Origin: an uncultured delta proteobacterium
GTDB taxonomy: Bacteria; Desulfobacterota; Binatia; UBA9968
Length of the DNA stretch: 64,000 bases
Direction of reading: 5' to 3'
Assembly (NCBI GenBank): GCA_963804165.1
Contig: CAWDPO010000010.1
Coordinates: 32,001-96,000 of the forward strand
This document shows positions 1 through 17,669 of the stretch, in pieces; position 1 is the first letter of the stretch; each line of letters opens with the position of its first letter. Under the pieces are notes generated by a model. It was not told where the DNA came from. It ran no database searches and worked only from the letters and a program-made list of their open reading frames with translations. The position numbers and the translations under genes were made by a program.

Positions 1-666
1 ACTTATCACTGGGTCTTCATCACGCGCAAAGAAGCCGGGCTTAAAAGTATCGAAACCCTACGCTCGGCAAGTGGAATTAGAATCGGCGCGCAAACCGTCG
101 GCCACTCGAACTATTTCGTCGGCCGCCTGTTTGCCCTGTTGATCGGATTTAAAGATCCTAAAATGGTCGTGGGCTACTCCGGCAACGAGCTCGACCTCGC
201 CCTCATGCGCGGCGAGATCGACGGCAGGATAAACAATCCGGACACGCTGACGATACGGAACGCGGAATGGCTCGCCAAAGGTATGATCGACATCCACGCG
301 ATCATGGAAGTGCCGCGCGGCCTCAAACAAGCGGGCTTCGATCGTTTGCCTGAAGTTGAAGAGTTCGCCAAATCGGAGCGTGAAAAAAAGCTATTGGCTA
401 TGGTTCGCACCTTCCGCCAGATCGGCACGCCGTCTTTCTTTCCGCCTGGCACGCCGGCGGAACCGGTAAAAATCCTCCGCGCCGCCACGGTGAAAATGTA
501 CAGCGACCCGGACTTTCACAAAGAGTATAAGAAACTGGTCGGCGAGGAGCCGACACCGCTATTGGGTGAAGACATGGAACGCGCCCTCAAAGAATTACCG
601 CGCGATCCAGAGACGGTCGATCTTTTCAAAAAGCTCAACGCCGCGGGACCGTTGCCGCCGCGGTGA
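1..666 (+). CDS. TctC/Bug-family tripartite tricarboxylate transporter substrate-binding protein (5'-partial)
   Basis: Frame is open from base 1 (TYHWVFITRKEAGL...); close paralog of the next ORF; C-terminal PPGTP motif. Confidence 0.8.
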   Translation, partial: TYHWVFITRKEAGLKSIETLRSASGIRIGAQTVGHSNYFVGRLFALLIGFKDPKMVVGYSGNELDLALMRGEIDGRINNPDTLTIRNAEWLAKGMIDIHAIMEVPRGLKQAGFDRLPEVEEFAKSEREKKLLAMVRTFRQIGTPSFFPPGTPAEPVKILRAATVKMYSDPDFHKEYKKLVGEEPTPLLGEDMERALKELPRDPETVDLFKKLNAAGPLPPR

Positions 667-676
667 TCAGGGCGAG

Positions 677-815
677 TTTCAAGCCGTTCAAGTCGTTTAA
701 CCGACAGAATATTCGACACACTGCTAATTGAACGTTGAACAGTCCGAAGTTTTCAGACGGTTTGGACGAACCCCGGACTCGATCCGGAGGGTTGAACGGC
801 TTGAACGATTTGAAC
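677..815. repeat. Inverted pair of short tandem 9-bp-unit (GTTCAANNN / TTGAAC) intergenic repeats
   Basis: ttcaagccgttcaagtcgttt at ~678-699 and gttgaacggcttgaacgatttgaac at 791-815; the same unit occurs at ~1926-1950 and ~8651-8680. Confidence 0.7.
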
Positions 816-845
816 CTCTCATCCAGAGAAAAAGGAGGGTTCGAG

Positions 846-1910
846 ATGAAATTGAATAGACTGCGACTTCAGCTCACCGCCCAAGCCATCTTGAGCGCGT
901 CGTTGATTTTTCTCTCCACCAACGCCTTCTCCCAGACGCCTTTCTATCAAGGCAAAACCATCACGATCATTCAGGGCACGGAACCGGGCGGCAGCTCGGA
1001 CATGATGACCAAGGCGATGCTGCCACATTTGAAAAAACATATTCCCGGCGAGCCCACCATCGTTTCGGAATACATGGGCGGCAGCGGCGGCATCAAGGCG
1101 GCCAATCACATTTTTAGAAACGCGCGCCCCGACGGCTTGACCATCGGCCGCATCGGCGGCGGTCTGGTGGCGAATGCGGCGCTCGGCGAAAAAGGCGTGC
1201 TCTACGATTTGAACAAATTCATTTACCTCGGCTCGCCGCACAGTACCTATCATTGGGTCTTCTTCACCAGGCGGGAAGCGAATTTGAGAAATATCGAAGC
1301 GCTGCGCACGACGCCGGGAATACGCATCGGCGCCCAGTCGGTGGGGCATTCCATTTATTTCGTCGGCCGGCTGTTTGCTTATCTGATCGGCTTTAAAGAT
1401 CCCAAGTTCGTCGTCGGTTATTCGGGCACCGAGCTCGACTTGGCGGTCACCCGCGGCGAGGCGGACGGTCGGGTCAATAACGCCGACACGATGCTGTCGC
1501 GCAGCGCCGACCTGCTGGCAAAGAAAGCCCTCGATCTGCACGTCATCATGGAAGTACCGAAAGGTTTGAAACAACCGGGTTTCGATGGCCTGCCGGAGAT
1601 CGAGGAATTTGCCAAGTCGGACAAAGAACGCAAATTGCTCGCAATGGTCCGGACATTCAGACAAGTCGGCACGCCGTCGATGCTGCCGCCGGGAACACCG
1701 CCGGAGCAAGTAAAGATCCTACGTACCGCCATGGCGAAGATGTACAGCGACCCGGAGTTTCACAAGGATTACCGGAAGCTCGTCGGCGAAGAACCGACAC
1801 CTATTCTAGGTGAAGAAATGGAGCGCGGTATTAAGGATCTACCGCGCGATCCCGAGCTCGTAGATCTATTCAAAAAACTCAACGCCGCCGGACCGCTGCC
1901 GGCGAGGTGA
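846..1910 (+). CDS. TctC/Bug-family substrate-binding protein
   Basis: RBS AAGGAGG before ATG 846; signal peptide; FYQGKTITII...PGGSSD; ARPDGLTIG; PPGTP. Confidence 0.85.
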   Translation: MKLNRLRLQLTAQAILSASLIFLSTNAFSQTPFYQGKTITIIQGTEPGGSSDMMTKAMLPHLKKHIPGEPTIVSEYMGGSGGIKAANHIFRNARPDGLTIGRIGGGLVANAALGEKGVLYDLNKFIYLGSPHSTYHWVFFTRREANLRNIEALRTTPGIRIGAQSVGHSIYFVGRLFAYLIGFKDPKFVVGYSGTELDLAVTRGEADGRVNNADTMLSRSADLLAKKALDLHVIMEVPKGLKQPGFDGLPEIEEFAKSDKERKLLAMVRTFRQVGTPSMLPPGTPPEQVKILRTAMAKMYSDPEFHKDYRKLVGEEPTPILGEEMERGIKDLPRDPELVDLFKKLNAAGPLPAR

Positions 1911-1982
1911 TCTAATATTTACCTCGTTCAAAAAGTTCAAGCCGTCTGAACGGGCAGGGCCCCGTGCCTGCCCCTATCCCGC

Positions 1983-3478
1983 CTAGCAGCCCGTGGCAAA
2001 AGAGCTCACGAGCGGGAATTTGATTCGCTCCACTTTGGTAGACATGTGAAAGGCGATCGTCGTGTTATCGGTCGATACCAGCTTCGAAGACGCTCCCAAA
2101 GCGTTTCTGAGGACCTTACGAATGACCATACAACTGCAAAAAGCGCCGCCAGGCGGCCCTGCAGGCTGCGCGGCGTGCCCACACCGAACAGTGTTCGCAT
2201 CAACAATCCAAGATTCAACGCCGCGGCATGTAGCAGTATGCGTTTGAGGATGTTCTGATGACCCCGCAGGTAGACACGTCGCATCGCTCCAGTTTCATAC
2301 AGATGGGCAAACGGCCGCTCGAGGAGTTCCCCCCGCTGACGGAGCAGCCGCTTGCCGCGTACGCCGCTAATCCGTCGGCGGTTGCGATATACGGCGTTGC
2401 GCGCCTCGGGGTTATCCTTCCAGTTTCGCCGCCCGCGATCGGGCTCCGAAATGTAGCTGCGCACGCCCACCGCTTCCAGGGCCACCAGCGCTTGATTGCT
2501 ATGATACCCCTTGTCGGCGACGACCTCTTTTGGCCCATCGCTCTCAGGGATGACCGCCTCGATCTGCTCGGCGGCCTCAATCAGCGTCTTGATACTCGTG
2601 GTGGGATCCCCTTGATCGGCGCCCTGCACGGTCACGCCCACCACCGCCCCCGTCTCCAGATCGACCGCGTGCTCGGCCTTGTGCGCCAAGTGCGTGCGTC
2701 CATCCTTCATCTTGGTGATCTTGGCGTCCGGGTCATGGGGATGGGTCCAGTCATCGTTGGAGCCCTTGTTCTTGCGCTTGCGGTCAAGGCGCGCCAAGTC
2801 CTCGCGTGTGGGCGTCTCAATGCCGGAGGCCTTGGCCAGCTGGGTGAGAAACTCCTGATAGTTTTCACCCGTATCGCGTCGCACGATACTGCGCAGCGCC
2901 GCATTGGCTTCGAGCGTGGTCGCGTCCATGCCGATCGTTTTGCCCTTGACCAAGCCCGCTTCAGCGAGCTGATTGAGAATCCAAGTGAAAACCTCCCGGT
3001 GCGTCTCCAAGTCGATCAACCGACGTGTGCGCGAAATCGTCGAATGGTCGGGCGGTGCCTCCGGCAACTCCAAATCCAAAAATTGGCGCAACGCAAACGA
3101 ATCGGCGGCGCGCCAGGCTATCGCGCGCTCGGAATCGAGCCCTTCAAAGTACCCGACAACGAGCAGGCGAAAATAGCGACCCGGTGCCAGACTCGGCCGG
3201 CCCATCCGCTCGGCGTAAAACGGCGCGCACAACTTCTCCACATGCGCATCGAACCCGGCTTTATCCAAAATCTGATTGATCCGCTCATAGAATGGATGTG
3301 CGGCCGTCGTCGGCAGATCGCTCGTGGCGATCCATATCGTCGATTGCCTCAACCTCTGCTTACGTTTTCCCATCGCCATGCACTCGACTGTACTATGCCT
3401 TAGCTGGTGTGACCAATGATCCAATCAATTTTCTGTTATTTGTTGAAGCCAACACGGACTTTCACCACGGACTGCTAG
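1983..3478 (-). mobile_element. Insertion sequence, IS5/IS1182-like, flanked by CTAG
   Basis: Ends ctagcagcccgtggcaaaag (1983-2002) and ctttcaccacggactgctag (3459-3478) are inverted repeats (17/20); CTAG at both ends; single DDE transposase inside. Confidence 0.85.
2006..3379 (-). CDS. DDE transposase (IS5/IS1182-like, DUF772-type N-terminus)
   Basis: GRPSLAP, PDHSTISR, MDATTLEANA, VADKGY, ELLERPF motifs; start taken at MAMGKRK. Confidence 0.9.
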   Translation of the reverse strand: MAMGKRKQRLRQSTIWIATSDLPTTAAHPFYERINQILDKAGFDAHVEKLCAPFYAERMGRPSLAPGRYFRLLVVGYFEGLDSERAIAWRAADSFALRQFLDLELPEAPPDHSTISRTRRLIDLETHREVFTWILNQLAEAGLVKGKTIGMDATTLEANAALRSIVRRDTGENYQEFLTQLAKASGIETPTREDLARLDRKRKNKGSNDDWTHPHDPDAKITKMKDGRTHLAHKAEHAVDLETGAVVGVTVQGADQGDPTTSIKTLIEAAEQIEAVIPESDGPKEVVADKGYHSNQALVALEAVGVRSYISEPDRGRRNWKDNPEARNAVYRNRRRISGVRGKRLLRQRGELLERPFAHLYETGAMRRVYLRGHQNILKRILLHAAALNLGLLMRTLFGVGTPRSLQGRLAALFAVVWSFVRSSETLWERLRSWYRPITRRSPFTCLPKWSESNSRS

Positions 3479-3492
3479 AGCCCGAATCGGCA

Positions 3493-3561
3493 CTTACCTT
3501 GCCGGCGGCCTTCGTCGATATTAATATCGCGAAAGGCAGATCTGTATATTACTGGTTGAAC
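3493..3561 (+). other. Copy 1 of 60-bp palindromic repeat ending at a GTT core (attI-like site and/or promoter-operator)
   Basis: 3493-3552 matches 8859-8918 at 51/60; central CGATATTAATATCG palindrome; followed by tg-GTTGAAC. Confidence 0.55.
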
Positions 3562-3713
3562 TAAACCGCTGCGCGGTGGCGGATGCCATGCCAGCGGTAG
3601 TGCTTTTGTCCGCTGCTGTTTTGCGCTTCATCTCTCGTAGCTTTGAGTCCCTCCCAGATTTCTGTTTCGCGTGATAGCGTCACTCCCAAATTTGAATCCA
3701 AGGAGGATTTTGT

Positions 3714-4550
3714 ATGGGAGCACTACGCACGAGGATGGTCGAGGAGATGAAGTTGAGAAACTTCTCGCCGCGCACGCAGCAGTCGTATTTGGCGGCGATG
3801 ATAGGATTGGTCAAGCATTATCGCCGGTCGCCGGACCAACTGACGCAAGACGACATTCGCGCTTATCTACTGCATCTGGAAAAACGCGGGTTGTCGCCGA
3901 GTTCGCGCAACGTGGCAATCTCGGGGATGAAGTTCTTTTACCACCAGATGTTGGGCTGGAACGACAAGCAATTGTTTATTCCACCGAGAAAGCGAAGTTG
4001 GCAACTGCCCGAAGTGTTAGGCCAGAAGGAAGTCGAACGGTTGCTGTTGGCCGCGGCAAAACAGCGCGACCGATGTCTGTTAATGACGGCCTACGCCACG
4101 GGGTTGCGGGTCAGTGAATTGGTCCGGCTCAAAGTCAGCGCCATTGACAGCGAACGGATGATGGTGCGGGTGGAGCAAGGCAAGGGGAGAAAGGACCGCT
4201 ACACGATTTTGTCTCTCCATCTGCTCACCGAGCTGCGCTCCTATTGGAAAGAGCATCGCTCGCCGATTTACCTGTTCCCCAACCGCAAGGGCGGTCCGAT
4301 ATCGATCGACTACGCCCAGAGGATCTACAATCTTGCCAAGGTGAAGGCCGGCATCCAAAAAGGCCACGGCATCCATACACTCAGACACTGTTTTGCTACC
4401 CATCTATTGGAAGCCGGGGTGGATCTGAGAACCATTCAGACGCTATTGGGCCATAACTCCATGGCCAGTACCGAGCGTTATTTGCAGATTCGCCAGCACA
4501 GGATCACCACCACGGCCAATCCCTTAGATCTGCTGCGACTGCCAAACTGA
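3714..4550 (+). CDS. Tyrosine recombinase / site-specific integrase (278 aa)
   Basis: YATGLRVSE, GKGRKDR, HTLRHCFATHLLE, LGH, TERY catalytic motifs; RBS AAGGAGG; lacks the IntI-specific insertion. Confidence 0.92.
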   Translation: MGALRTRMVEEMKLRNFSPRTQQSYLAAMIGLVKHYRRSPDQLTQDDIRAYLLHLEKRGLSPSSRNVAISGMKFFYHQMLGWNDKQLFIPPRKRSWQLPEVLGQKEVERLLLAAAKQRDRCLLMTAYATGLRVSELVRLKVSAIDSERMMVRVEQGKGRKDRYTILSLHLLTELRSYWKEHRSPIYLFPNRKGGPISIDYAQRIYNLAKVKAGIQKGHGIHTLRHCFATHLLEAGVDLRTIQTLLGHNSMASTERYLQIRQHRITTTANPLDLLRLPN

Positions 4551-4565
4551 GAAGGCAGATTCTCG

Positions 4566-5742
4566 GTGCTGTCGCGCGCGGATGGGCGGGCAGCAGGAGA
4601 GAAACAGGGGCGCCCCGAGCTGGCCGATGTTTTTCGCCAGTACGGGGAGAACTACCAACGAACGCATCGCTTGTCGGCCTCTCAGCAAAAAGTGATGCAG
4701 GCCGTCTCGGTCTGCCGGACTCAACAGCTAGGCGGGCATCTGGATCGATGCGACTCATGCGGTTTTGAGCGCCCGGCTTATAACTCCTGTCGTAACCGCC
4801 ACTGTCCTAAATGCCAGTCCTTGGCCAAAGCCAAGTGGTTGGAGAAACAAACCGCTGAGCTTTTGCCGGTGGGATACTTCCATCTGGTCTTCACGTTACC
4901 GCACGAGCTCAATGGTCTGATCCTCGCCCACAAAAAGATTGGTTTGAGCTCTGCTCTTTAAAGCCGTCAGCGAAACGCTCCTTGAGTTTGGCCGCTCGCG
5001 TCTTAAGGGAACGGTGGGGGTCATCGCCGTCCTGCATACCTGGGATCAAACGCTCAAAGACCATTTTCATCTGCACTGTCTCATCCCCGCCGGCGCTCTG
5101 TCCTTCGATCACAGCCGCTGGATCTCTGCGCGAAAAAACTTTCTGTTTCCCGTCAAAGCTTTGAGCCGGGTCTTTCGTGGAAAGTTTCTTGATCGGTTAC
5201 AGCAGGCCGGTGATAGAGGAAAAGTCGAAGAAATCAACGCTGTCATCAAAGCCTTACGCCAAAAAGATTGGAACGTCTACGCGAAAAAGCCCTTCGGTTC
5301 TCCACAGAAAGTTCTCGATTACCTCGGCCGCTACACTCACCGCGTCGCTCTCTCCAATGACCGAATCCTCAAAGTCGAAAACGGCCAGGTCTCTTTGAGC
5401 TATAGAGATCGAAAAGATGGGGATAGAAAAAAAACAGTCACCCTTGAAGCCCAGGAATTTATCCGCCGCTTCATGCTTCACGTGCTTCCCGATGGCTTCA
5501 TGCGCATCCGTCACCTCGGGTTTCTGGCCAACCGCTCTAAGAAACAGGCCTTGGCTCAATGCCGCAAACTTCTCGATCTTGATCCGGCTTTGCCCCAGCG
5601 TCCCAACGAATCAGCCAAAGAATTGCTGCTAAAAATTAGCGGTTTCGATCTCGCTCGCTGCCCTTGCTGCTGTGAGGGAATGATGATTATCGTAGGCGAC
5701 CTACCAGCATTGTCGATCTCGCCTCGTGTGGATTCTTCATGA
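4566..5742 (+). CDS. IS91-family (Y2/HUH) rolling-circle transposase with Zn-binding domain; one frameshift near 4950
   Basis: CDSC..YNSCRNRHCPKCQ Zn domain; LHTW..HFHLHC HUH motif; YLGRYTHR; removing one base near 4950 restores LLFKAVSETLLEF. Confidence 0.88.
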
Positions 5743-5990
5743 ACAAGGCTCCATCGCATCTCAGCTGGTGTGACTCTCGATCTGCCGACATTGGCGCGGG
5801 TGTGTTTGGCTCTGCCCAAAACCGGCTCTGAAGCCGCATGGCAGTGTCGCAATCGGCGAAAAGCCATCGGCGCTGATCTCAACCAGCATCCGCTGGCCGT
5901 ACTATCGCTACCGCGTGCGCCATGCTCGGCCGGCACTGCGTCCAGGTTACAATCCCCATAGCCGAAGCAGCACAGCGGCTCCGCGGTTTA

Positions 5991-6085
5991 GTCCAACCAC
6001 GTTTTATCCCCTTAGCGATACTCCGGCGCTATCCAAGCAACTTGATTGCCGCCAACCTTTAGGGATAAAACGCTATACGTTAGAC
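5991..6085 (+). other. Atypical att site (attC/attI-like) at the right end of the element
   Basis: GTCCAAC (5991), perfect 11-bp IR cgttttatccc (6000-6010) / gggataaaacg (6062-6072), then GTTAGAC (6079-6085). Confidence 0.55.
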
Positions 6086-6104
6086 CGACAGAGATACTTG
6101 GAAG

Positions 6105-6506
6105 ATGCAACATCAACGTACTGAAATCGGAAGAGCATGGTTCGCAATATGTTGGTTCGCCACTTGGGGATTGTTTCAGGGATTTGCAGTCTTCTCGGTG
6201 CTCAATGGAACCTGGGAGCGACCAGCCGCATTTCCGGCCGGCGCATACGAGTCGCTGATCTATCCAGATATGTTCTTCATTCCGCTCTACTTGTTGGCGG
6301 CCACTCTGCTGTTTCGGCGCCACTGGCTCGGGAGCGTTCTGGCCTTTGTGGCGGGCGGTGGAATCGTCTACGCCATGATCTATCTCTTGGCCCTTTCTGG
6401 TTTCTCAGGCGCGGTTAATCTGACCGCTGACGGGATATTCTTGGCCTGCACGTTTGTCTCGCTGTGGCAGGTGGGGTACCGCACCAGTCTGCGGCACGCG
6501 GTCTAA
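6105..6506 (+). CDS. Hypothetical membrane protein (gene cassette)
   Basis: About four hydrophobic segments; stop codon lies within the attC R'' box GTCTAAC; upstream core GTTAGAC is its exact complement. Confidence 0.75.
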   Translation: MQHQRTEIGRAWFAICWFATWGLFQGFAVFSVLNGTWERPAAFPAGAYESLIYPDMFFIPLYLLAATLLFRRHWLGSVLAFVAGGGIVYAMIYLLALSGFSGAVNLTADGIFLACTFVSLWQVGYRTSLRHAV

Positions 6507-6602
6507 CACGCCGCTGCAGCCGACGAGCGGCGCGGCTGGTATCGGGCTGACTCAAGGGTCTTGGGTGATCGCCGCTCGCGGCTGAGCGGCATGGCGTTAG
6601 GG
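6501..6602 (+). other. Integron attC site
   Basis: R'' GTCTAAC, 5-nt spacer, L'' GCTGCAGC ... L' GCTGAGC, R' GTTAGGG; internal dyad gagcggcg / cgccgctc. Confidence 0.85.
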
Positions 6603-6632
6603 GCCGGATCTGCGCTGCAACTTGGATAGACC

Positions 6633-7109
6633 ATGTCATTTCCTGCCCCGTTCATCATTCGTCAGCTTGCGTCCGACGACGTGGCACTGATGGAAGCCAT
6701 GTTGACGACCTTCGGCAATGCGTTCGACGAGGTGGAGGCTTATGGCGCGGCTCGGCCAAGTAAAGCCTATCTCGAGCGCTTGCTTGGCAGTGATTATTTT
6801 ATCGCGCTTGCAGCATTGAAGAATGACTCGGTTGTCGGCGGCATCGCCGCTTACGAACTCCATAAGTTCGAGCAGGAGCGCAGTGAAATCTACATTTATG
6901 ATTTGGCCGTCGCGGCAGCGCACCGGCGCGAGGGCATCGCGAGGCGGAGCGAACTCAAGAAGATTGCTGTAGTGCGCGGAGCCCATGTCATCTTCGTGCA
7001 AGCGGACATCGGCGATGCACCTGCCATCGAGTTATATACGAAGCTAGGAGCTCGCGAAGAAGTGCTGCACTTCGATATCGCAGTTCCGGGTGGCAATGAC
7101 GGTACATAA
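6633..7109 (+). CDS. aac(3)-I: AAC(3)-I-family aminoglycoside N-acetyltransferase-like GNAT (gene cassette)
   Basis: YLERLLGSDYFIALAA, AYELHKFEQERSEIYIYDLAV, FVQADIGDAPAIELYTKLG.REEVLHFDI match AacC1-type motifs; short deletion after REGIA. Confidence 0.8.
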   Translation: MSFPAPFIIRQLASDDVALMEAMLTTFGNAFDEVEAYGAARPSKAYLERLLGSDYFIALAALKNDSVVGGIAAYELHKFEQERSEIYIYDLAVAAAHRREGIARRSELKKIAVVRGAHVIFVQADIGDAPAIELYTKLGAREEVLHFDIAVPGGNDGT

Positions 7110-7168
7110 ACGTGGTTGCAGGTGACTTCCAGCCTGCGACCGGCCCGCACCTGAACCACGGGATAAGT
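7104..7168 (+). other. Degenerate attC site
   Basis: cgtggttGcaggtg (7111-7124) pairs with cacctgaaccacg (7148-7160) leaving one extrahelical base; both R boxes are damaged (ACATAA-, GATAAGT). Confidence 0.6.
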
Positions 7169-7171
7169 GCC

Positions 7172-7565
7172 ATGACCACCTACCGAGGTTCCTGCCATTG
7201 CGGAAAAGTCCGCTTCGAAGCGGTCGAGGCTGAGATTGACCATGTTCGAGTCGTGCGACTGCTCCATCTGTCGCAGGCGAGGTGCGCTCAATTATCGCGT
7301 GGCCAAAGAAAATTTTCGTTTGCTGACGCCTTGGCAGGATCTCACCCTGTATCAATGGGGCTCTCTAACTGCAAAGGACTATTTCTGTCCGACATGCGGT
7401 ATTTTGTCTTTCAGACGACCGAGCGATCCAACACCGGCGGAACTATCTGAAGGCGTAGAGCCCTTCGAAGGATGGGCTATCAACCTAAGATGCCTAGAAG
7501 GCATCGATCTGGACTCAATCCCTGTCAAGCGAATCGACGGCAGTAGAATCCGGCTTGGTCTCTAG
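7172..7565 (+). CDS. GFA/CENP-V family Zn protein; frameshift near 7252
   Basis: YRGSCHCGKVRF + CDCSICRRRG + YFCPTCG + INLRCL split over two frames. Confidence 0.8.
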
Positions 7566-7726
7566 AGGCCGTCGCCCACGCGCCAAAATAATTAGCCATT
7601 TTTTCCGCGTCGGGCAGACGGTTACGACCTTGTCGTGCTTTCTGAATTGATGGAACCAAAAGATACAGATCGCTGCGTCGCCTGAGCCCACAAAACTTAG
7701 TATAGTTCGTCAGGTAGGTTGATTTC

Positions 7727-8528
7727 ATGAGTATCTCTGGAGGATACGATGAATACGCGTTCATCGCCGATCTCTACGACCACGTCGTGCCTTACCGTGC
7801 TCGGGCGGATATCGCCTTCTTCGTCGAAGCAGCGAGGAAAGCTGGGAGTCCAGTTCTCGAAGTGGGTTGCGGGACCGGACGCATCCTGATTCCGACCGCT
7901 CGCGCCGGCGTTGATATCGTGGGTCTCGATCTTTCTCCGCACATGCTTGCAGTGTGCCGCCGGCGGCTCCGGGACGAACCGGCACGAGTCGAATCCAGGG
8001 CGCGCCTAATACAGGCAGACATGCGATCGTTCGACCTCGGAAACACTTTCAATTTGGTGACAGTTCCGTTTCGTCCCTTCCATCTTGACTACATTGGACG
8101 ATCAGTTCGCCTGTCTCGTGAACATTCGTCGCCACTTGGTCGATGGAGGTCGCTTGATCCTTGACCTGTTCAATCCGTCTCTCGATTTACTGGTGAATGC
8201 GGCGGTTGGAGAAGAATTCGGTGACGAACCGGAGTTCTCCATGCCGGATGATCGTCGTGTGATCCGGCGCCACAAGACCGTCGCCAGCGATCGCTTTAGT
8301 CAAGTCAACCAGGTTGAGCTGATCTATTACGTCACTCATCCCGACGGCCGCGAAGAACGTTTGGTCCACTCTTTCCCTATGAGATATCTGTTCAGATTTG
8401 AAGCAGAACATCTGTTAGCTCGCTGTGGATTTGAGGTTGAGCATGTTTATGCGGATTACGACAAGAATTCGTACGGGTCGAAATATCCAGGCGAACTAAT
8501 ATTTGTCGCAAAACATGCCAGGACCTGA
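7727..8528 (+). CDS. Class I SAM-dependent methyltransferase; frameshift near 8083
   Basis: VLEVGCGTGRI, GLDLSPHML, QADMRSF, PFRPF, then LILDLFNP...YLFRFE in a second frame; followed by GCCTAAC (8542). Confidence 0.8.
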
Positions 8529-8551
8529 CGGTACAGCCGCAGCCTAACATC

Positions 8552-8670
8552 CGGTATCAAAGACCTGCAGCGCGATCCGGAGATCATCGATCTTTTCAAG
8601 AAACCCAATGCCGCGGGACCGCTGCCGGCGAGGTGATCTAGATTTAACTCGTTCAAAAAGTTCAAGCCGT
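8552..8670 (+). repeat. Diverged duplicate of tctC 3' end and downstream repeat (original ~1826-1945)
   Basis: Encodes GIKDLQRDPEIIDLFKKPNAAGPLPAR* vs GIKDLPRDPELVDLFKKLNAAGPLPAR*; shared ctcgttcaaaaagttcaagccgt. Confidence 0.85.
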
Positions 8671-8858
8671 TCAAACCGTTTTTACGGAGCGCAGCACCAG
8701 TTTCATCAAATTTACCGCGTCTGCAATGTGGAGCACATCCGGGTACCTGATCAATTTTCGACTGCTGGAGTTCCTTCCGATGAACCTCTTCCCATGCGCA
8801 TTCGAGCCCGTCTAAACGAGAGCAGAGCAAACGGTTCTCGGCCTTTATGTATCCGACC

Positions 8859-8925
8859 CTTACCTTGCAGCCAGCCTTTGGCGATATTAATATCGCCAAA
8901 AGCTGGTCTGTATATTACGTTATAC
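8859..8925 (+). other. Copy 2 of 60-bp palindromic repeat ending at a GTT core
   Basis: Perfect 24-bp palindrome tttggcgatattaatatcgccaaa (8877-8900), then ctgtatattac-GTTATAC (8919). Confidence 0.55.
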
Positions 8926-9039
8926 CGTCCCGATCTCTTGAGCTAAAACTCTCGGAGAAGGAAGCGATTAGCCACCGGTAATGTCAGAGTTCTTCAGCCC
9001 GCATAAAGTGCGGATGAGCCGTTCCACCGGCATAATCAC

Positions 9040-10713
9040 ATGGCAGATCGAAGCCTGATCCACGCCGCCATCGCGCTGCGAGACTGCGCCTTCCTGAGTC
9101 TGATCCTACTGATATCGCTCCTCCTCTACATACGCGGTCTCGGCTTCTACAGCGATGACTGGGCATTCCTGAGCGCCTTATCGCACTCCGGTGCCAACTC
9201 GCTGATCGAGTTGTTCAGCGCTCTGTATGCCGACGAGAATATTCGCCAGCGCCCGCTGCAGGCGCTCCACCTAGCGTGGATGTACCGGGTGTCCGGCACT
9301 GACCCGCTCGGATATCACCTCGTCAACTCGGCGGTCTTCGTCGTCGCGGTATTACTCTTTTACCTATCACTCCGCGAGCTAAGACTGCCGCGCCTCGTCG
9401 TTCTCACCGTACCGCTGGTTTATGGGCTGTTGCCGCACTACTCGACCGACCGTTTCTGGGTTGCGGCATCCCAGGCGAACCTGAGCATGGCGCTATACTT
9501 CACCAGCCTGTATGCCGACTTAAGGGCGCTCCGGACGAGGCGCGCGCGCCGATGGAGCTGGAAGTTACTAAGTCTGGCGTGCCTGCTTGGCAGCACCCTC
9601 GCCTACGAGGTGGCGCTGCCGCTGTTTCTGTTCAACGCGGCGATGATCTGGTTGTACGCGCGAGGGTTATACATTCGAGAGCTGTCCGACTGGAGAGAGC
9701 AGGCGAGCGTCGCAGCAATGGTAGGCAGCAACTTGGTGATGCTGGTGTTGGTGCTAGGGTACAAGGCGGCAACGACAGGCCGCGCTGGGGGCTTCGCGAC
9801 AGGTTACGCCTCGCATTTGCTCTACGTTATTAAGCGAGCTGTGCTTATTGACTATGTCAGCCTCGGTATCGCCCTGCCGAATGTCGTGGCAAAGGTCTTG
9901 CGGCACCACGCCGACCCAGTGATGCTCGTCGTCGGCGTGGCACTCGGAGCGGCAGTCTTCGCTTACCTCTACCGCGCCGCCGGTCAGTCGGGAGACGGAA
10001 CACAGGCCGCGGGCGTGTGGCTGACGGTACTCGCCCTAAGCCCGGTCGTCTACTTCCTGGGCTATGCGGTCTTCGTTACGACGTCACAGTTCATGGTTCA
10101 TAAGACGGGCATCGCCAACCGCATAACGATTGCGGCAGCGGTCGGCGTGGCGATGTCTTTCGCGGGAGGGACGGGTTTGGCGAGCGCGCTGCTGCCTTCA
10201 GCGTGGCTGCGCAGAAGTGTCTTTCCTTCGGCTATCGCACTGCTATGCGTGTGCGGGTTCCTAATCATCAACGCCAACGCCAAGTTTTGGATCACCGCTT
10301 ATGCAGAACAGCAGCGGGTGCTCGCCAACATCCGCGCTAACATCACGTCGCTACCCGGAGGGAGCACTCTGATCCTCGACGGGACCTGCCCCTACATCGG
10401 GCCCGGCATCGTATTTGAGGGCGAGTGGGACTTAGCCGGAGCGTTACAGATGATCTACCATGATCCAATACTGCGGGCGGACGTCGTCACGCCGAAGCTG
10501 AGGGTGGGCGAAGACGGCCTCACGACTTCCATGTACGGCATCCCGAGCCACTATCGATATGGCGACAATCTGCTGCTCTACGACTTACGACGCAAGACAG
10601 TGGACAGGCTGGTTGACGCCGAGATAACCCGCCGCTACTTCACGGCCCGCAAGTTGGATCACAGCAGAGGTTGCCTAAAAGGTAGGGAAGGTCAGGGTGT
10701 ACCGCCTTTCTGA
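9040..10713 (+). CDS. Polytopic membrane protein, probable GT-C-fold glycosyltransferase
   Basis: 557 aa, many TM segments; FYSDDW acidic pair after TM1; RP..YHLVN; YE motif. Confidence 0.6.
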   Translation: MADRSLIHAAIALRDCAFLSLILLISLLLYIRGLGFYSDDWAFLSALSHSGANSLIELFSALYADENIRQRPLQALHLAWMYRVSGTDPLGYHLVNSAVFVVAVLLFYLSLRELRLPRLVVLTVPLVYGLLPHYSTDRFWVAASQANLSMALYFTSLYADLRALRTRRARRWSWKLLSLACLLGSTLAYEVALPLFLFNAAMIWLYARGLYIRELSDWREQASVAAMVGSNLVMLVLVLGYKAATTGRAGGFATGYASHLLYVIKRAVLIDYVSLGIALPNVVAKVLRHHADPVMLVVGVALGAAVFAYLYRAAGQSGDGTQAAGVWLTVLALSPVVYFLGYAVFVTTSQFMVHKTGIANRITIAAAVGVAMSFAGGTGLASALLPSAWLRRSVFPSAIALLCVCGFLIINANAKFWITAYAEQQRVLANIRANITSLPGGSTLILDGTCPYIGPGIVFEGEWDLAGALQMIYHDPILRADVVTPKLRVGEDGLTTSMYGIPSHYRYGDNLLLYDLRRKTVDRLVDAEITRRYFTARKLDHSRGCLKGREGQGVPPF

Positions 10714-10839
10714 TGCGTTAGATAGCCAATGACTCACCGTGCTGCGCATAGTGTCCTGCTCGTTTTACTTTTTGCTGGTTGTGTCGGCGGTGCGTCATGC
10801 ACAAGGAGCAACACGCAGTCAATCCAAAGGAATGAAAAT

Positions 10840-11481
10840 ATGAGCAAGATCTTTTTCGACGTTGGTGTGTCGCTGGACGGCTATATCGCCGGACCCAATC
10901 GAGGACCGGGTAACCCGTTGGGCGACGGGGGTGCCGGCATTCACAAGTGGATGTTCCAAACGGCGAGCTTTCTTGAGCGCCTCGGTTTGTCAGGCGGAGA
11001 GACCTCGCCCGATGATAAACTTGTCAAGGAGGTGTTCGAGCGCACCGGCGCGTATGTGATGGGTAGACGCATGTTCGACGAGGGCGAGGTCGGCTGGCCC
11101 GAGAACCCACCTTTCCGTGCGCCCGTGTTTGTCCTCACACACTCCGCTCGCGATCCATGGCAGAGGAAGGGCGGAACGACATTCGTCTTCGTCACCGACG
11201 GCATCGCGAGCGCTTTAGAGCAGGCCAAGGCCGCCGCTGGCGCCAAGGATGTGCGAGTTTCCGGTGGCGCTGAAACCATCAGGCAGTTTATCGGATCCGG
11301 CCTCATCGATGAATTCACCCTTCACGTTGCTCCCGTGTTGTTGGGCACCGGCGTCCGGTTGATGGATCGCCTAAGTCCGGCCGACCTCAAACTGGAGCAG
11401 TCAGGCGTGAGTAGCTCACCGCTCGTCACCCACATCAAATACCGGGTACTACGGCCAAACCCGAATCAACATGACGCCTAA
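10840..11481 (+). CDS. Dihydrofolate reductase / RibD C-terminal family protein (cassette-like)
   Basis: VSLDGYIAGP, MGRRMF, VFVLTH, GGAETI, IDEFTLHVAPVLLGTG; upstream GTTAGAT (10717), stop within GCCTAAC; alternative start 10729. Confidence 0.85.
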   Translation: MSKIFFDVGVSLDGYIAGPNRGPGNPLGDGGAGIHKWMFQTASFLERLGLSGGETSPDDKLVKEVFERTGAYVMGRRMFDEGEVGWPENPPFRAPVFVLTHSARDPWQRKGGTTFVFVTDGIASALEQAKAAAGAKDVRVSGGAETIRQFIGSGLIDEFTLHVAPVLLGTGVRLMDRLSPADLKLEQSGVSSSPLVTHIKYRVLRPNPNQHDA

Positions 11482-11500
11482 CCCTGAGATCGAGCAGACC
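11476..11500 (+). other. Truncated attC (left half only)
   Basis: GCCTAAC-CCTGA-GATCGAGC has R''-5nt-L'' spacing; no L'/R' partner found. Confidence 0.45.
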
Positions 11501-11550
11501 TCCGACGACCGCCCTACCCACACAAGCCGATAAATGATAATGATCGGCCC

Positions 11551-12828
11551 ATGCGATTGGATCTCGGTTGCATTCACATCAAAAATGTCCATTTCGGCGC
11601 TAAGACGGCGATCGAAAATCATAGCCTGTCGATCGATCGCCAAGAGTTAGTTTCGCTGCTCGAACCAGAACCGCTCTTCGATCGCGTCGAAATCGAGCTG
11701 GCCCATCCCGGCGAATCCTGCCGCATCATCCGCGTCCTCGATGTTGTCGAACCGCGTTATCGAATGAACGGGCCGAATTTTCCCGGCGCTCTCGATGCCA
11801 ACGGCCTTGTCGGCGACGGCCAGACGCGCGCGCTTAAAAATGTCGCCGTGGTCGAAACTGACCAGCTCGCGACCCGCTCGCGAAATATCATCGACATGAG
11901 CGGACCGGCGGCTGAATACTCCCCCATCGCCAACACGCACAATGTCGTCTTGCTGCCTTATCCGAAGCCAGGCGCCGACAAAGACGATTATCGCTTGGCC
12001 GTGAAGAAGGCCGGGTTGAAAACCGCGACGTATCTTGCAGCGGCGGCGAAGAGACGTCGCTCCTCATGAAACGCAAACCTTCGAGCTGCCGCCCGTCGCA
12101 TTCAATCAAGGGCCGAAAGATTTGCCGCGCATCGCCTATATTTTTCCGATGCATTCGCACCAGCATCCGACCCAGCAAAAAGAAACCGTCTTTTACGGCA
12201 GCAACATCCAGGGCTTCATGCCGACGATCGTTCATCCCAACGAGATCCTCGACGGCGCGCTGATGTTTTCTTACTCGGCATTTACCTGGTTCGCGCAGAA
12301 TCATCCGGTGATACTAGAGTTATATCGCCGCCACGGCGTCGACCTCTGGTTCGCCGGCGTCGTCCTCACCATCGCGCCGGTCACGATTGCTGAAAAGGAA
12401 CGCAACACCGCCCTCGCCGCGCGTCTGGCGAAAGAAGTCTTAAACGCCGATGGCATCATCGCGACCAAAATCGGCGGCGGAGCCGTCGATACCGACTTGA
12501 TGATGATCTACACGCGCGCTGAAGAGATGGGCATGAAAGCGACGCTGATCATCATGGAGCGCTATCCCGACACCGGCATCACTTTCGTGCCGGCGAACGT
12601 GAACGCGCTCGTCACGCCCGGACTAACGCGCGATGCGATTACGCTGCCCGCCGTCGAGCGCGTCATCGGCGGCGACACGATCGCATTGGACAACTCCAAT
12701 CCCGGACAACAGCAATCCTGGCATCACGCTGGCTGCCGGCGAATGAAGAATTGAATCTTTGGATCGGCGACATCGTCGGCGCCATCAGCCAGGTCGGCGC
12801 ATCGCGGCTGACGACGTACATGAGTTAA
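11551..12828 (+). CDS. Glycine/sarcosine/betaine reductase component B alpha/beta subunit (GrdE-like); frameshifted
   Basis: MRLDLG..IKNVHFG, LAHPGESCRII..DVVEPR, IIDMSGPAAEYSP, PTIVHPNEILDGA, QNHPVILELY, DTDLMM; at least two frame changes (~12050, ~12700-12750). Confidence 0.8.
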
Positions 12829-12849
12829 GAAACTCAGAATGATTCCCGA

Positions 12850-12990
12850 AAGGCGCAAAGACGCAAAGTTAGAAACAAATTCATTTCGACACGAAAACTA
12901 GGACAAACTCCAGGAGAAATCGTTTCAGCGTTTTGAGTTTTGAATGACGGACTTGCCCGTCAGTTTGCGCTTTTGCGCCTTTGCGGGAAA
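12850..12990. repeat. Intergenic inverted CGCAAAG / CTTTGCG repeat pair
   Basis: cgaaaggcgcaaagacgcaaag vs tttgcgcttttgcgcctttgcg; related half-copies near 14490, 19393 and 23260. Confidence 0.55.
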
Positions 12991-13038
12991 ATTCGATTTC
13001 GGATAATTCAGCGAACGTTGCGCATCGGAGATAACGGC

Positions 13039-14332
13039 ATGAGCACAAAAGATCCGCGTCGTCCATTACTTGAATCAGTTCTTCGCCCAGATCGGCGGCG
13101 AAGACAAAGCCGACGTCGGCCCGCGGATCAAAGCCGGACTTGTCGGCCCCGGCCGCGCGCTGCAACAAGCGCTCGGCGAGCAACGGCGAAGTCGTCGCGA
13201 CGATATTTTGCGGCGATAATTATTTCGCCGAGCACCAAGACGAAGGCGATCGATGCAATTGATCCAACAAATGGCCGAGTACAAACCGGATTTGCTGATC
13301 GCCGGTCCGGCTTTCGAGAGCGGCCGTTATGGAATCGCTTGCGGCGCGATCTGCCAAGCCGCGCAGCAGCAGCTCGGCATCGCGGCCGTGGCGGGAATGG
13401 ACGAAGACAACGTCGGCGCGAGCCTGTATCGGAAAAATATCTACATCATCAATTCAGGCGCCACCATCGTCCGCATGGTGCCCACGCTTCAGCGCATGGC
13501 CGCGCTGGGAGTGAAACTCGTTCGCCGCGAGACGATCGGCAAACCTGAAAATGAAGGTTATCTGCCGCGCGGCATCAAGCGCAACGAATTTGCCGCCAAA
13601 CCTCCCGCGAGCGCGCCGTCGACATGCTGCTGGCCAAATTGCGCGGCGATGAATTTCATTCAGAGATCGCCCCGCCACAATTTGCCGGCAGCAAACCGGC
13701 CGCGCCGCTGCACGAATCTCAAGTCGGCGGTCATCGCGCTGGTAACCGACGGCGGCTTGGTGCCCGAAGGCAATCCGGACAAAATCGAGCCCGGCCGGCC
13801 GACGCGCTTCACGACCATCCCTATCGCAGGCGTGAATTCTCTCGACGCGGATAAATATGACGCCGTTCATTCCGGTTACGACACGGCGATTCGCCAATCG
13901 CGACCCGAACCGCTTGGTGCCGCTCGACACCATGCGCGATCTCGAACGCGAAGGCGTGATCGGCAAGCTCCATGAGTTCGTCCATTCCACCGGCGGCGCT
14001 CACGCCGCTGTGGAAAACGCCACGACCATCGGTAAAGACATAGCTCAGCGTCTGAAAGCCGCCGGGGTCACCGGCGTGATCCTCACCTCGACCTGAGGCT
14101 CCAGCACTCGCTGCGGCGCAGCGATCAGCAAAGAAATCGAAAAACTGGAGATTCCGGTCACGCAAATCTGCACGATGATCCCGGTGGCGAAAGAAGTCGG
14201 CTCGCTGCGCGCGATCGCCTCCGGGGGGATCGTCAGCCCGACCGGCAACCCGAGTTGACCCCGGAAAAAGAAAAAGAGTTCAGGCGTGAGTTGATTCTTC
14301 GCGCGCTGCAAACGTTGCAAGAAGAAGTCTGA
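13039..14332 (+). CDS. Glycine/betaine/sarcosine reductase-family selenoprotein B (GrdB-like); Sec TGA at 14094-14096; several frameshifts
   Basis: VVHYLNQFFAQIGGED, CGDNYF, AGPAFESGRYGIACG, IALVTDGGLVPEGNPDKIE, DPNRLVPLD, ILTST-TGA-GSSTRCGA..KEIEK. Confidence 0.85.
14108..14124 (+). promoter_or_regulatory. Candidate bacterial SECIS hairpin
   Basis: TCGCTGC-GGC-GCAGCGA stem starts 11 nt after the in-frame TGA; G in the loop. Confidence 0.6.
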
Positions 14333-14549
14333 AAGAAACATTGACCACGAAGACCTGCAATGTTTAACAGGCTCTGAAGATTCGGAATGCTTCGACATGC
14401 TCCGCATGAACGGAAACGCTAGTATCCTCCCTCCGTTCGTCCAGCGCCGTCGAAGGACTCCTAACCATCTGTTAGACTTCTCAGCTTCGTGCTCCTCGTG
14501 ACCTTTGTGGTTAAATCGAATTGTTCGAGTTGAGTCAGCGGAGCCGGCA

Positions 14550-15548
14550 ATGAAACTACAAAAACTATTGCTCGGTTTGGCCATTTGCTGCGCGGTATTC
14601 AGTTTGAACGTTTCCGCCGCGACCGCACAGGACGTTGTCGCCGGCGCGAAAAAAGAAGGGAACCTCGTCCTCTATCTTTCGACGAACCTCACCGACGCCA
14701 ACGGCATGGTCCAACTTTTCAAGCAGAAATATCCCTTTATCAACGTAAACCTCTTTCGCGCCGATAACGAAAAACTATTGAACCGAATCCTCACCGAATC
14801 GGCCACGGGAAAATTCAACGGCGATACCATCATGATCAGCAGCTTCGAAGTCCGCGTGTTGCTGCAGAAAAAGCTCTTGCAGAAATATGTCTCGCCGCAC
14901 AGCCAATATTATCCCGAAGGCTTCACCGACAAAGACGGCTCTTGGACCAGCGTCTACTCGATCCCGAGGGTCATTGCCTACAATACGAATCTGGTCAAAC
15001 CCGACGTCGCGCCAAAAACATTCGACGATGTGCTCAATCCGCGCTGGAAAGGCGGATTCGGCCTGTCGGACAGCGCAACGCTCTGGTACACCGGCTTTTT
15101 GAAATTTGTTGGCGAAGAAAAGGGTCGCGACTTCATGCGCAAGCTCGCCGCCCAAAAGCCAGCGTTTCGCGACAGTGAAACCGTGATCATGCAGCTGCTC
15201 GGGGCAGGTGAGTTTCCCTTGGGTCTGGTCTACTCACACCAAGCGGCAACGATGAAGAAACGCGGCGCGCCAGTAGAATGGGTACGCACGGCGCTACCCA
15301 TCGTTACGGGACTGAAACCGATTGCGCTCAGCGCTAAAGCCCAACACCCAAACGCAGGCAAGCTGTTCATCGATATGGCGCTATCCAAGGAAGGCCAGGA
15401 GCTGATCAAAAGCTTCAACCGCATTCCCGACCGTGGCGACGTGACATCAGAGCTGAAGGAAGGAACCAAGCTCTTTCCCGCCGATCCACGCTGGGGGGAC
15501 AGCTACGGCAAATACGTCGACGAGTTTCGCGAAATCTTTTTCAAGTGA
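14550..15548 (+). CDS. ABC transporter extracellular solute-binding protein (Fe3+/thiamine-like cluster)
   Basis: Signal peptide; AKKEGNLVLY, FKQKYP, IAYNT, PRWKG, AGEFP, HPNAGKLFID. Confidence 0.85.
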   Translation: MKLQKLLLGLAICCAVFSLNVSAATAQDVVAGAKKEGNLVLYLSTNLTDANGMVQLFKQKYPFINVNLFRADNEKLLNRILTESATGKFNGDTIMISSFEVRVLLQKKLLQKYVSPHSQYYPEGFTDKDGSWTSVYSIPRVIAYNTNLVKPDVAPKTFDDVLNPRWKGGFGLSDSATLWYTGFLKFVGEEKGRDFMRKLAAQKPAFRDSETVIMQLLGAGEFPLGLVYSHQAATMKKRGAPVEWVRTALPIVTGLKPIALSAKAQHPNAGKLFIDMALSKEGQELIKSFNRIPDRGDVTSELKEGTKLFPADPRWGDSYGKYVDEFREIFFK

Positions 15549-15679
15549 AAGCACGGTCTGCAGTGGGTTTTCGAATACTTCGTCCTTTGTGGTTGAGTCG
15601 CCCATTGATCGATTGACGAAACCATCCGAAACGTCGTAAACACCGATCACAAGCTGCAATACTTTCGAGGTAAACCCCT

Positions 15680-17368
15680 ATGTACGATCTAATTCTCAAA
15701 GGCGGACGCGTTTACGACGGCTCGGGCATGCCGTCCTTTATCGGCGACGTGGCGATTGCCAACGGACGGATCGAAGAGATCGGTCGAATCAACGGTGCAG
15801 CCGATCGCGTGCTCGACGTCGGCGGTCTCGCCGTCGCGCCGGGTATCATCGATTTTCACACCCACTTCGACGCGCAACTGTGGTGGGATCCACTGGCGTC
15901 ATCGTCGACCGAACACGGCGTTACCACCGTTGTGATGGGTAATTGCGGCCTGACACTGGCGCCGTGCAAGCCGGAGAGCCGCGATGCGTTGATCGGCACC
16001 TTTGTGCGAGTAGAGGACATGCCGCGCCAAAGCTTGCAAACCGGCATTCCCTGGGAGTGGACGACCCACGGCGAATATCTCGATGCTCTGGAGCGAAAGC
16101 CGCTTGGACTCAACGTCGCGACGCTCGTCGGCCACTGCGCCGTGCGCCAGTTTGCGATGGGCGAAGCCAGCGTCGAGCGCGAGGCCAACGACGCCGAGAT
16201 TGCCGAGATGGAAGAGTTGGTGCGCCACGGTATGCGGGCCGGCGCCTTCGGCTTCTCGACCAATGCCAACCAGCGCCACTACCGCGAAGATGGCAAGCCG
16301 GTAGCCAGTCGCTCCGCCGGTCTCGACGAAATCGCGCGCCTGTGCCGCGTGGTCGGCGAAGCCCGGAGCGGCCTGGTGCAGTTCACCCACGGCGCCTTCG
16401 CCGCACCCGAACATGTCGCACGCATCGGCCAATGGTACGACACGATCCTCAAGGAGACCCAGCGGCCACTGATCGGCGAAAGTATCCGTCACTTCTGGAG
16501 CGAGCCGGATTTATGGCGCAAGCAATTGAACGACGTCGAAGAGCGCTGCCGGCAAGGCTATGCGGCGTATGCGATGACCAGCACACGACGCACGCTGCGG
16601 CGTTGGACGTTGAAGGATTCGAGCCGGTTCGACGAAATGCCCGCGTGGAAGAATCTGATGACATTGCCTTTGGAACAGCGCAAGGAGAACTTTAGCAACC
16701 CGCAAACCAGGCTCGAGCTGGTCAAAGCAATGGCAGAAAGCAAACCAATTAGCTTCTCCCGCCGCTGGAATTTAATCTCCGTCAAGAAAGCCACTCGTGC
16801 GGAAAACAAACCGCTCGAAGGCAAAAGCATCGACGAGCTAGCCCGACTCCGAGCAAAGGCTCCCATCGACGCCTTCCTAGACTTAGCTCTCGGGGAAGAC
16901 TTGGACACGACCTTCGAAGATACCGCGACACAGGGCGATGAGCAGGCGGTGAAAGAAATTTTCTCTAGCCCGCATGTCTTGCTCGGTCAGTCCGACGCCG
17001 GCGCCCACGTCGCCAACGCCAACCCGGGTTTCGGCTTCGCCACAACCATGCTCGCGTACTGGGTGCGCGAGCGGCAGATCATGAGTTTAGAAGACGCAAT
17101 TAAAAAACTGACGTTCCTGCCGGCCTCGATCTTCGGCATCCACGAACGCGGCCTGCTGCGCCGCGGCCTGGCCGCCGACCTTTTCGTCTTCGACCCAACG
17201 ACGATCGATTTGCTTCCGCCGGAAAAAATCAACGATCTTCCCGAAGGCGCCTCGCGCTACATTCAGCGCGCCAAAGGAATCCAATATACCGTCGTCAACG
17301 GCTCCGTCCTGATGAAAAACGGCACCCACACGGGCGTGTATCCGGGTAGTGTGCTCCGAAGTGCTTAG
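15680..17368 (+). CDS. N-acyl-D-amino-acid deacylase family amidohydrolase
   Basis: YDLILKGG..DGSG, APGIIDFHTHFD, GVTTVVMGNCG, SDAGAH, ADLFVFDP. Confidence 0.9.
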   Translation: MYDLILKGGRVYDGSGMPSFIGDVAIANGRIEEIGRINGAADRVLDVGGLAVAPGIIDFHTHFDAQLWWDPLASSSTEHGVTTVVMGNCGLTLAPCKPESRDALIGTFVRVEDMPRQSLQTGIPWEWTTHGEYLDALERKPLGLNVATLVGHCAVRQFAMGEASVEREANDAEIAEMEELVRHGMRAGAFGFSTNANQRHYREDGKPVASRSAGLDEIARLCRVVGEARSGLVQFTHGAFAAPEHVARIGQWYDTILKETQRPLIGESIRHFWSEPDLWRKQLNDVEERCRQGYAAYAMTSTRRTLRRWTLKDSSRFDEMPAWKNLMTLPLEQRKENFSNPQTRLELVKAMAESKPISFSRRWNLISVKKATRAENKPLEGKSIDELARLRAKAPIDAFLDLALGEDLDTTFEDTATQGDEQAVKEIFSSPHVLLGQSDAGAHVANANPGFGFATTMLAYWVRERQIMSLEDAIKKLTFLPASIFGIHERGLLRRGLAADLFVFDPTTIDLLPPEKINDLPEGASRYIQRAKGIQYTVVNGSVLMKNGTHTGVYPGSVLRSA

Positions 17369-17609: not shown

Positions 17610-17669
17610 GCTTAACGCGAAAGCTCAGCGGCGCGGTTTATCCGCGTCCGCTGCAGCGTCTTGTTCGGC
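17610..17669 (-). other. Integron attC site (canonical, 60 bp)
   Basis: Minus strand: GCCGAAC-AAGAC-GCTGCAGC-ggacgcggataaaccgcgcc-GCTGAGC-TTTCGC-GTTAAGC. Confidence 0.9.

Follow-up and report, generated by a model that had tools for sequence, protein, structure and literature searches.

An insertion sequence (IS) that stands at the head of a row of integron-like gene cassettes raises two questions, namely how it reached that site and whether it built the row. The locus that raises them here lies in a 64,000-nucleotide (nt) stretch of DNA, hereafter the window, covering positions 32,001 to 96,000 of contig CAWDPO010000010.1 from an uncultured delta proteobacterium (Desulfobacterota; Binatia; NCBI GenBank assembly GCA_963804165.1). 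This contig is C10 of an assembly (G000) of 46 contigs and 7.5 Mb, with a completeness of 81%, whose nearest related records are metagenome-assembled Candidatus Binatia genomes. An earlier reading of the letters alone, referred to below as the sequence-only reading, had described a two-gene unit, encoding a tyrosine recombinase and a Y2/HUH transposase, that was built like a gene cassette and that might capture or shuffle its neighbours independently of the integron integrase IntI. We consider it probable, at roughly 60%, that the window element is a decayed ISAzo26-like insertion sequence of the IS91 family whose ends imitate a gene cassette. The element itself is a member of a known subgroup, and the part that looks novel is its cassette mimicry together with its homing to integron core sites.

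Boundaries, genes and family of the element

The element and its immediate target comprise the following features, given in window coordinates.

3555–6078, plus strand: whole IS91-family (ISAzo26-like) element, 2,524 bp, delimited by five own-genome copies with different flanks and by metagenome contigs that diverge at 3555 and at 6079–6082
3554–3569, plus strand: left inverted repeat (ter end), with GTTGAAC at 3555–3561, found by repeat search; the motif recurs in 66 of 80 related loci
3566–3576: small palindrome CCGCTGCGCGG after the left repeat
3714–4550, plus strand: tyrosine recombinase of 278 amino acids (aa), Xer/IntI-like, without the IntI insertion (Pfam, NCBIfam, tree)
4566–5742, plus strand: IS91 Y2/HUH transposase gene (PF14319, PF04986), its frame broken at about 4930–5013 into open reading frames (ORFs) 4566–4961 and 5014–5742
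5983–5998, minus strand: right inverted repeat, with GTCCAAC at 5991–5997, about 80 nt inward of the right end
6000–6078, plus strand: ori-end hairpin (arms 6000–6010 and 6062–6072) and 6-nt spacer CTATAC (6073–6078), kept in the own-genome copies that have a right end
6079–6085, plus strand: target core GTTAGAC, start of the adjoining cassette; a contig from run X3 has different DNA immediately before 6079

The boundaries were set by aligning the ends among own-genome copies with differing flanks, together with soil-metagenome contigs at least 90% alike; the latter are assembled contigs from 24 runs and hence carry no strand or circle information. Within the genome, contig C5 carries one full-length copy (84% identical) and C41 two (83% and 76%); truncated copies occur on C37 and also C9, C17 has a remnant of the right end, and remoter copies are spread over C18, C30 and C23, the last with two. 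Similarity among these copies begins at GTTGAAC on the left and ends at CTATAC on the right, directly before GTT, and the hairpin that follows the right repeat is kept in all five copies that retain a right end. The element therefore spans 3555–6078, and the hairpin is its own terminus. The sequence-only reading had placed GTTGAAC, GTCCAAC, the hairpin (6000–6072) and GTTAGAC correctly, and the inverted repeat that it described is real, left and right copies matching at 15 of 16 positions. It had, however, taken this repeat as the bounds of the unit, at 3553–5999, and so left outside a hairpin that is internal to the element. The corresponding degenerate 16-nt pattern has two matches in the window, against 0.02 expected from shuffles, and no further occurrence there.

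Shorter forms also occur: C17:199338–199471 and a contig from run X2 (near window position 5958) are reduced to the final 120 nt or so of the element. In run X2 this right-end stretch is joined to a few left-end letters and may be a non-autonomous mini-element. At several non-coding places, four runs concur on single-base differences from the window.

Both genes of the presumed pair are indeed present. The recombinase matches Phage_integrase (135 bits) and SAM_4 in Pfam, and the two halves of the transposase match the zinc domain Zn_Tnp_IS91 (118 bits, in 4566–4961) and Y2_Tnp (206 bits, in 5014–5742). The transposase is nonetheless interrupted here; undamaged relatives have 391 aa, one such paralog scoring 439 bits on NF033538 (cut-off 125), and the break in the window could be an assembly indel. 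A protein search returned thousands of close relatives, chiefly on contigs of 1–3 kb, as expected of a repeated element. For comparison, 80 related recombinase-bearing loci from many phyla were assembled into a set, and in 79 of these the transposase gene directly follows the recombinase gene, while the remaining contig ends too early to tell.

The family assignment follows from both gene content and ends. On a plasmid of Aromatoleum aromaticum EbN1, the annotation names the two genes of the same pair tyrosine recombinase and "IS91-like element ISAzo26 family transposase". The ISAzo26 copy has the same gene order, the left repeat (GTT, then GGAC or GAAC, then TAAACCGC), the right repeat, the right-end hairpin and, just ahead of its left end, a hairpin as in the window. 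There is no difference in kind between the two elements, apart from the broken transposase frame of the window copy; the right flank of ISAzo26, known from one copy, is ATT rather than GTT. ISWz1, ISMno23 and ISSod25, names from ISfinder, presumably belong to the same subgroup.

According to the part of a published account of the IS91 family that was available to us (PMC13181058), its members have ter and ori ends with subterminal palindromes, make no target duplication, insert by bottom-strand circles only, and use a tetranucleotide target adjoining ori that equals the ter cleavage site, e.g., GTTC in IS801 and IS1294. The window element has a corresponding layout, with GTTG, seven letters and the small palindrome on the left, and the long hairpin, CTATAC and the flank GTTA on the right. 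Across clades, the letters that precede the left GAAC co-vary with those that follow the right end (GTT, GTTT, ACTT, ATT or GAAT), which fits the published rule equating the ter cleavage site with the target site. The GTT at both ends is therefore explicable without any integron. A target duplication was also considered for the two GTT and rejected, the letters being constant within a clade despite unrelated flanks.

The right end consists of a hairpin and a 6-nt spacer in all 30 elements that could be anchored. IS91-type and IS1294-like copies without a recombinase, carried by plasmids of E. coli, terminate in CCTATAC or CCTATC, which makes the terminal hexamer a trait of the family. Canonical IS91, IS801 and IS1294 likewise possess a Y2/HUH transposase that includes a zinc domain, as well as ter and ori ends, but they have neither the recombinase gene nor the long inverted repeat, and their target is of 4 nt, against 7 nt here. 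The statement that IS91 elements do not have inverted repeats is thus untrue of the ISAzo26-like subgroup. In the literature searched, no attC or attI association was reported for canonical IS91, IS801 or IS1294.

Tandem copies are also found. Locus L071 (G009:C1:5214101–5223724), on a complete chromosome with no IntI hit, holds four head-to-tail copies with a period of 2,406 bp, three of which are 100% identical. Two 12-nt micro-repeats of the right terminus follow this array, and L021 duplicates its last 23 nt. A solo copy in G009 and the array were considered as independent insertions, which was rejected on account of a left flank of at least 130 nt that they have in common.

The recombinase scores 197 bits with the NCBIfam model of XerA, 173 with XerD, 172 with XerC and 161 with IntI, all below the respective cut-offs (265 for IntI). 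Its match to the IntI model (TIGR02249) is in two pieces, 5–181 and 241–314, so that it is devoid of the IntI-specific insertion, as the sequence-only reading had stated. The nearest solved structures are archaeal XerA, IntI4 (again a two-piece match) and XerD. A quick maximum-likelihood tree (52 rows, with XerD as root) unites 31 of the 32 IS91-linked recombinases in one clade (Shimodaira–Hasegawa-like approximate likelihood-ratio test, SH-aLRT, 95); the thirty-second row (L047) is a wrongly picked ORF with a very long branch and falls outside. This clade is sister to nine IntI sequences (99), with a joint support of 91. The kinship is already published: in the part of 10.1101/542381 available to us, the recombinases of IS91 and IS3 elements constitute an "Integron-like" subgroup without the IntI insertion.

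Cassette-like ends and association with integrons

Within the GTT clade, the match to integron core sites extends beyond the first three letters. Of 17 right flanks compared by eye, 11 fully match GTTRRRY, where about one would be expected given GTT; the window flank, GTTAGAC, is one such match. From these flanks, the clade appears to home to integron core sites. The Betaproteobacterial clade (L050, L053, L055, L058 and L060) was omitted from the flank counts, its ends not being placeable by the motif method.

The folding of the ends adds to the likeness. The hairpin and the flanking GTT give the right end an attC-like look, and when the two ends of the element are joined in a model, the right repeat pairs with the left repeat to make a second stem below the ori hairpin, hence an attC-like two-stem fold of -34 kcal/mol on the top strand and -37 kcal/mol on the bottom strand. 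A home-made heuristic, used for all attC calls below, accepts as attC the natural head-to-tail junction of L071 and the right ends of L022, L038, L057 and L078. On the other side of the element, 18 of 62 left flanks fold at z < -2, and a heuristic attC ends exactly on the first seven letters of the element at 8 of the 62 left ends, or at 6 when the two tandem junctions of L071 are set aside. The claim that the unit is built like a gene cassette is thus supported across its clade.

The same heuristic finds 34 attC-like sites in 582 kb of related loci, against 2 after shuffling. The genome of the window overall has 79 in 7.5 Mb, which makes the related loci about 5.6 times denser. In L024, from a close Binatia relative in whose genome there is no IntI hit, the element takes up a cassette slot in an array of six attC sites, and L038 and L042 are alike in this respect.

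IntI itself scores over the NCBIfam cut-off (TIGR02249, 265 bits) directly upstream of the element in 4 of the 80 loci, the gene being full in L022, L057 and L073 and truncated in L043; in L073, the distance between the start of IntI and the element is 134 bp. An IntI fragment occupies the same position in L037. A left flank of about 200 bp, located in L022 after the stop codon of IntI, is common to L022, L023 and the own-genome copies C41b and C9. On the right, L022, L023 and C41b have flanks that differ, and C9 is truncated before its right end. Ten host genomes were screened with the same cut-off, of which six have a true IntI. Many hosts are incomplete metagenome-assembled genomes, and part of the insertions may be of common ancestry. 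The Acidobacterial clade provides a counterpoint, with GTTT as its letters, flanks that are unstructured and unrelated, and a genome with no IntI hit over cut-off; the family is therefore mobile by itself and independently of attC sites. As a side observation, a lexA gene lies beside the IntI fragment of L037, directly upstream of the element (L037:3340–4316).

The element thus resembles integron cassettes in its boundary at the GTT of GTTRRRY, in an imperfect two-stem 3' hairpin and in occupying cassette slots and first-cassette positions. It differs from a gene cassette in carrying two genes with their own upstream region, in encoding its own transposase and recombinase, and in the asymmetric spacers of its hairpin (2–3 nt versus 6–7 nt). 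Mobile elements that home to integron attC sites have been described, namely the IS1111-attC group and the group IIC-attC introns (PMC9229058, in the part available to us). These are alike in homing to attC but employ different enzymes. Both kinds insert within attC rather than at the cassette boundary, and they are not known to mimic a cassette. For the elements discussed here, no paper describing cassette mimicry or homing to attC or attI was found in the literature searched, bar a single remark, in the available part of PMC9229058, on cassette-like behaviour of ISShvi3 in a Shewanella integron; our comparison with ISShvi3 is limited to that remark.

A clade that appears to home to integron cores, folds like attC and carries a recombinase sister to IntI offers a testable link between rolling-circle transposons and integrons. 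It bears on the role of the recombinase in a widespread IS91 subgroup and on the origin of integron integrases and attC. It also carries an annotation risk, since elements of this kind can be mistaken for cassettes or for evidence of integron-like systems devoid of IntI.

A possible route of insertion and its competitors

Family membership, boundaries, conserved end structure, target consensus and integron association are established here, and a route of insertion can be sketched on that basis by analogy with IS91. The transposase would nick the ori end, i.e., the hairpin with CTATAC; the bottom strand would be peeled off up to the ter end, composed of GTTG and the small palindrome; and the resulting single-stranded circle would insert beside a short target equal to the ter letters. 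Two additions would be specific to the clade. The target would be the 7-nt integron core GTTRRRY, mostly just after a hairpin (attC or attI), and the 15-nt inverted repeat would let the joined ends fold like attC, such that the inserted element reads as a cassette. In the window, the insertion would have landed with the palindromic repeat D1 as its left flank and, on its right, the leading gene of a small cassette cluster that has decayed. The site-specific joining could be performed by the HUH transposase, by the element's own IntI-like recombinase or by a resident IntI. First-cassette positions beside IntI favour a reaction of IntI or of an IntI-like enzyme; autonomy is favoured by the conservation of the transposase and by copies whose host genomes gave no IntI hit.

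It is conceivable, if unlikely, that the element is a passive integron cassette, i.e., that its right-end hairpin is a true attC and that a resident IntI moved it, its own enzymes having no part in its arrival at the site. First-cassette positions beside full (L057, L073 and L022) or truncated (L043) IntI would be readily accounted for, as would the attI-like left flank that L022, L023 and C41b share ahead of differing right flanks, the 11 GTTRRRY flanks among 17 and the cassette slot in the array of L024. Such passive carriage is difficult to reconcile with copies in genomes with no IntI hit, including the complete chromosome with its four-copy tandem array, with an intact HUH transposase conserved in 79 of 80 loci, with spacers unlike those of canonical attC, and with an Acidobacterial clade that uses no attC sites. 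A rather improbable account would do away with integrons altogether and regard the locus as the product of ordinary IS91-type transposition into a short GTTR target, the cassette likeness and the nearby attC being coincidental. Tetranucleotide targets such as GTTC and hairpinned ends do belong to the IS91 family (PMC13181058, in the part available; E. coli plasmid copies), and the left flank in the window is not a canonical attC. Coincidence would nevertheless have to explain why positions 5–7 of the right flank are constrained too, with 11 of 17 flanks matching GTTRRRY in full, why IntI lies directly beside 4 of 80 loci and a fragment of it beside a fifth, why related loci exceed the genome overall about 5.6-fold in the density of attC-like sites, and why a heuristic attC directly adjoins 8 of 62 left ends.

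The proposal that the element is an IntI-independent platform, in which the HUH enzyme would supply single strands to the recombinase for the capture and shuffling of neighbouring cassettes, appears very improbable. It draws on the sister relationship to IntI (our tree; 10.1101/542381, in the part available), on the position of the element at the head of the local cluster, on the absence of an intact IntI from the assembly, and on the L024 genome, which has no IntI hit despite an element set in an attC array. The sequence-only reading had noted that there is no IntI in the window, and the model search finds none over cut-off in the whole 7.5-Mb assembly. This assembly is, however, only 81% complete, and it contains IntI fragments on C34 and C4, of which the former is a piece of the IntI C-terminus, with 83% identity to the IntI of L022 across 30 residues, followed by four attC-like sites; the locus (C34:24302–32842) looks like a decayed integron. 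The heuristic finds no attC-like site within 10 kb of 5 of the 11 own-genome copies or fragments, a true IntI is present in 6 of the 10 host genomes screened, and the local cluster is itself decayed. The GTT ends correspond to the ter and target logic of IS91, and arrays occur where IntI is present or has left fragments. The element did not build the adjoining cassette cluster, which was most likely made by an integron integrase now absent from the assembly.

Several points also weigh against our preferred reading, that of an ISAzo26-like element imitating a cassette. The attC calls come from the home-made heuristic and not from IntegronFinder's model, and the right end of the window element is accepted as attC only by a looser first scan, its spacers being atypical. 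Canonical attC sites have spacers unlike the 2–3 and 6–7 nt of this element. D1 was examined as a canonical attC and rejected, as it is without an R''-type partner and without a heuristic call, and the only heuristic attC in the span 6079–8551 is that at 6501–6602, to which the attC-like end of the element itself would add a second, two or more attC near one another and away from any intI being what defines a CALIN (a cluster of attC lacking an integrase). The attI-side insertions of L022, L023, C41b and C9 may be a single inherited event. Finally, one contig from run X1 joins right-end letters to position 3555 over 14 letters, a junction equally explained by a tandem copy; the joints table of the metagenome contigs (24 runs) contains no end-to-end element joint and one loose end only.

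A bolder extension, to which we give little credence, would make recombinase-bearing IS91 elements self-contained one-cassette integrons: the HUH enzyme would produce a bottom-strand circle, the joined ends would fold like attC, and the recombinase would exchange one strand with GTTRRRY, so that IntI and attC might descend from such a recombinase and such an ori–ter hairpin.

The cassette cluster and the neighbouring DNA

The features on either side of the element are the following.

1983–3478, minus strand: DDE insertion sequence (DUF772/DDE_Tnp_1 in Pfam, IS5/IS1182-like), 10 nt left of D1, with a 99.9% identical copy on C23
3488–3552, plus strand: D1, 65-nt palindromic repeat, left flank (target side) of the element, fold z -2.2; second copy at 8854–8918
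6105–6602, plus strand: cassette 1, an ORF of 133 aa from no known family (Pfam), then the sole canonical attC, 6501–6602 (heuristic)
6633–7160, plus strand: cassette 2, an AAC(3)-I family acetyltransferase gene (6633–7109), then a weak hairpin (7111–7160, z -1.3)
7172–7627, plus strand: GFA-family gene over two frames, then a hairpin (7568–7622, z -3.2) and GTTACGA
7727–8548, plus strand: S-adenosylmethionine (SAM) methyltransferase gene over two frames, then a bare GCCTAAC (8542–8548)

To describe these co-oriented genes as separated by attC sites was an overstatement: one attC is canonical, two further spacers have weaker hairpins, and the last is a bare GCCTAAC. Broken frames affect two of the four cluster genes, those of the GFA family and of the methyltransferase; the cluster is cut off at 8551, and the genes from 9040 on have an ordinary chromosomal look. 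Counting the transposase and a glycine reductase gene, four genes are frame-split within 9 kb (4930–5013, 7172–7565, 7727–8528 and 11551–12754), and these multiple split frames may reflect either decay or assembly indels. The product of cassette 2 places an AAC(3)-I family aminoglycoside acetyltransferase (NF033083, 213 bits, cut-off 200), with a canonical attC upstream of it, in a soil Binatia.

D1 belongs to a repeat family with five copies in the genome, two of them in the window and the others on C37, C30 and C5. The copy on C5 is unoccupied and is followed by TG and then by GTTAGCT, which fits the inferred target. A search of window positions 1–20000 against Rfam returned nothing relevant, one sub-threshold microRNA match on D1 being surely due to chance. 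A further idea, that D1 terminates the adjacent DDE insertion sequence, was rejected because the 99.9% identical copy on C23 stops at window position 3478.

An IS5/IS1182-like sequence lies just left of a recombinase-bearing IS91 element at three places: window 1983–3478, C23:257795–259290 (in the opposite orientation) and L123:830–2185, the last being ISAzo2 on the Aromatoleum plasmid. The left-end hairpin may attract both kinds of element, IS91 and DDE.

Two diverged copies of a gene 3' end followed by D1 (1826–1945 with 3493–3552, and 8552–8918) bracket the element and the cassettes as direct repeats, and the 3' ends of ORFs 1–666 and 735–1910 are alike (79%). A second short attC, 60 nt long and canonical-looking, is located 11 kb downstream among ordinary genes (17610–17669), and a weaker call (16525–16615) falls within an amidohydrolase ORF. 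Between these and the cluster, window positions 11551–13975 contain glycine/sarcosine/betaine reductase genes, in which the GrdB-type ORF is interrupted, as expected of a selenocysteine codon.

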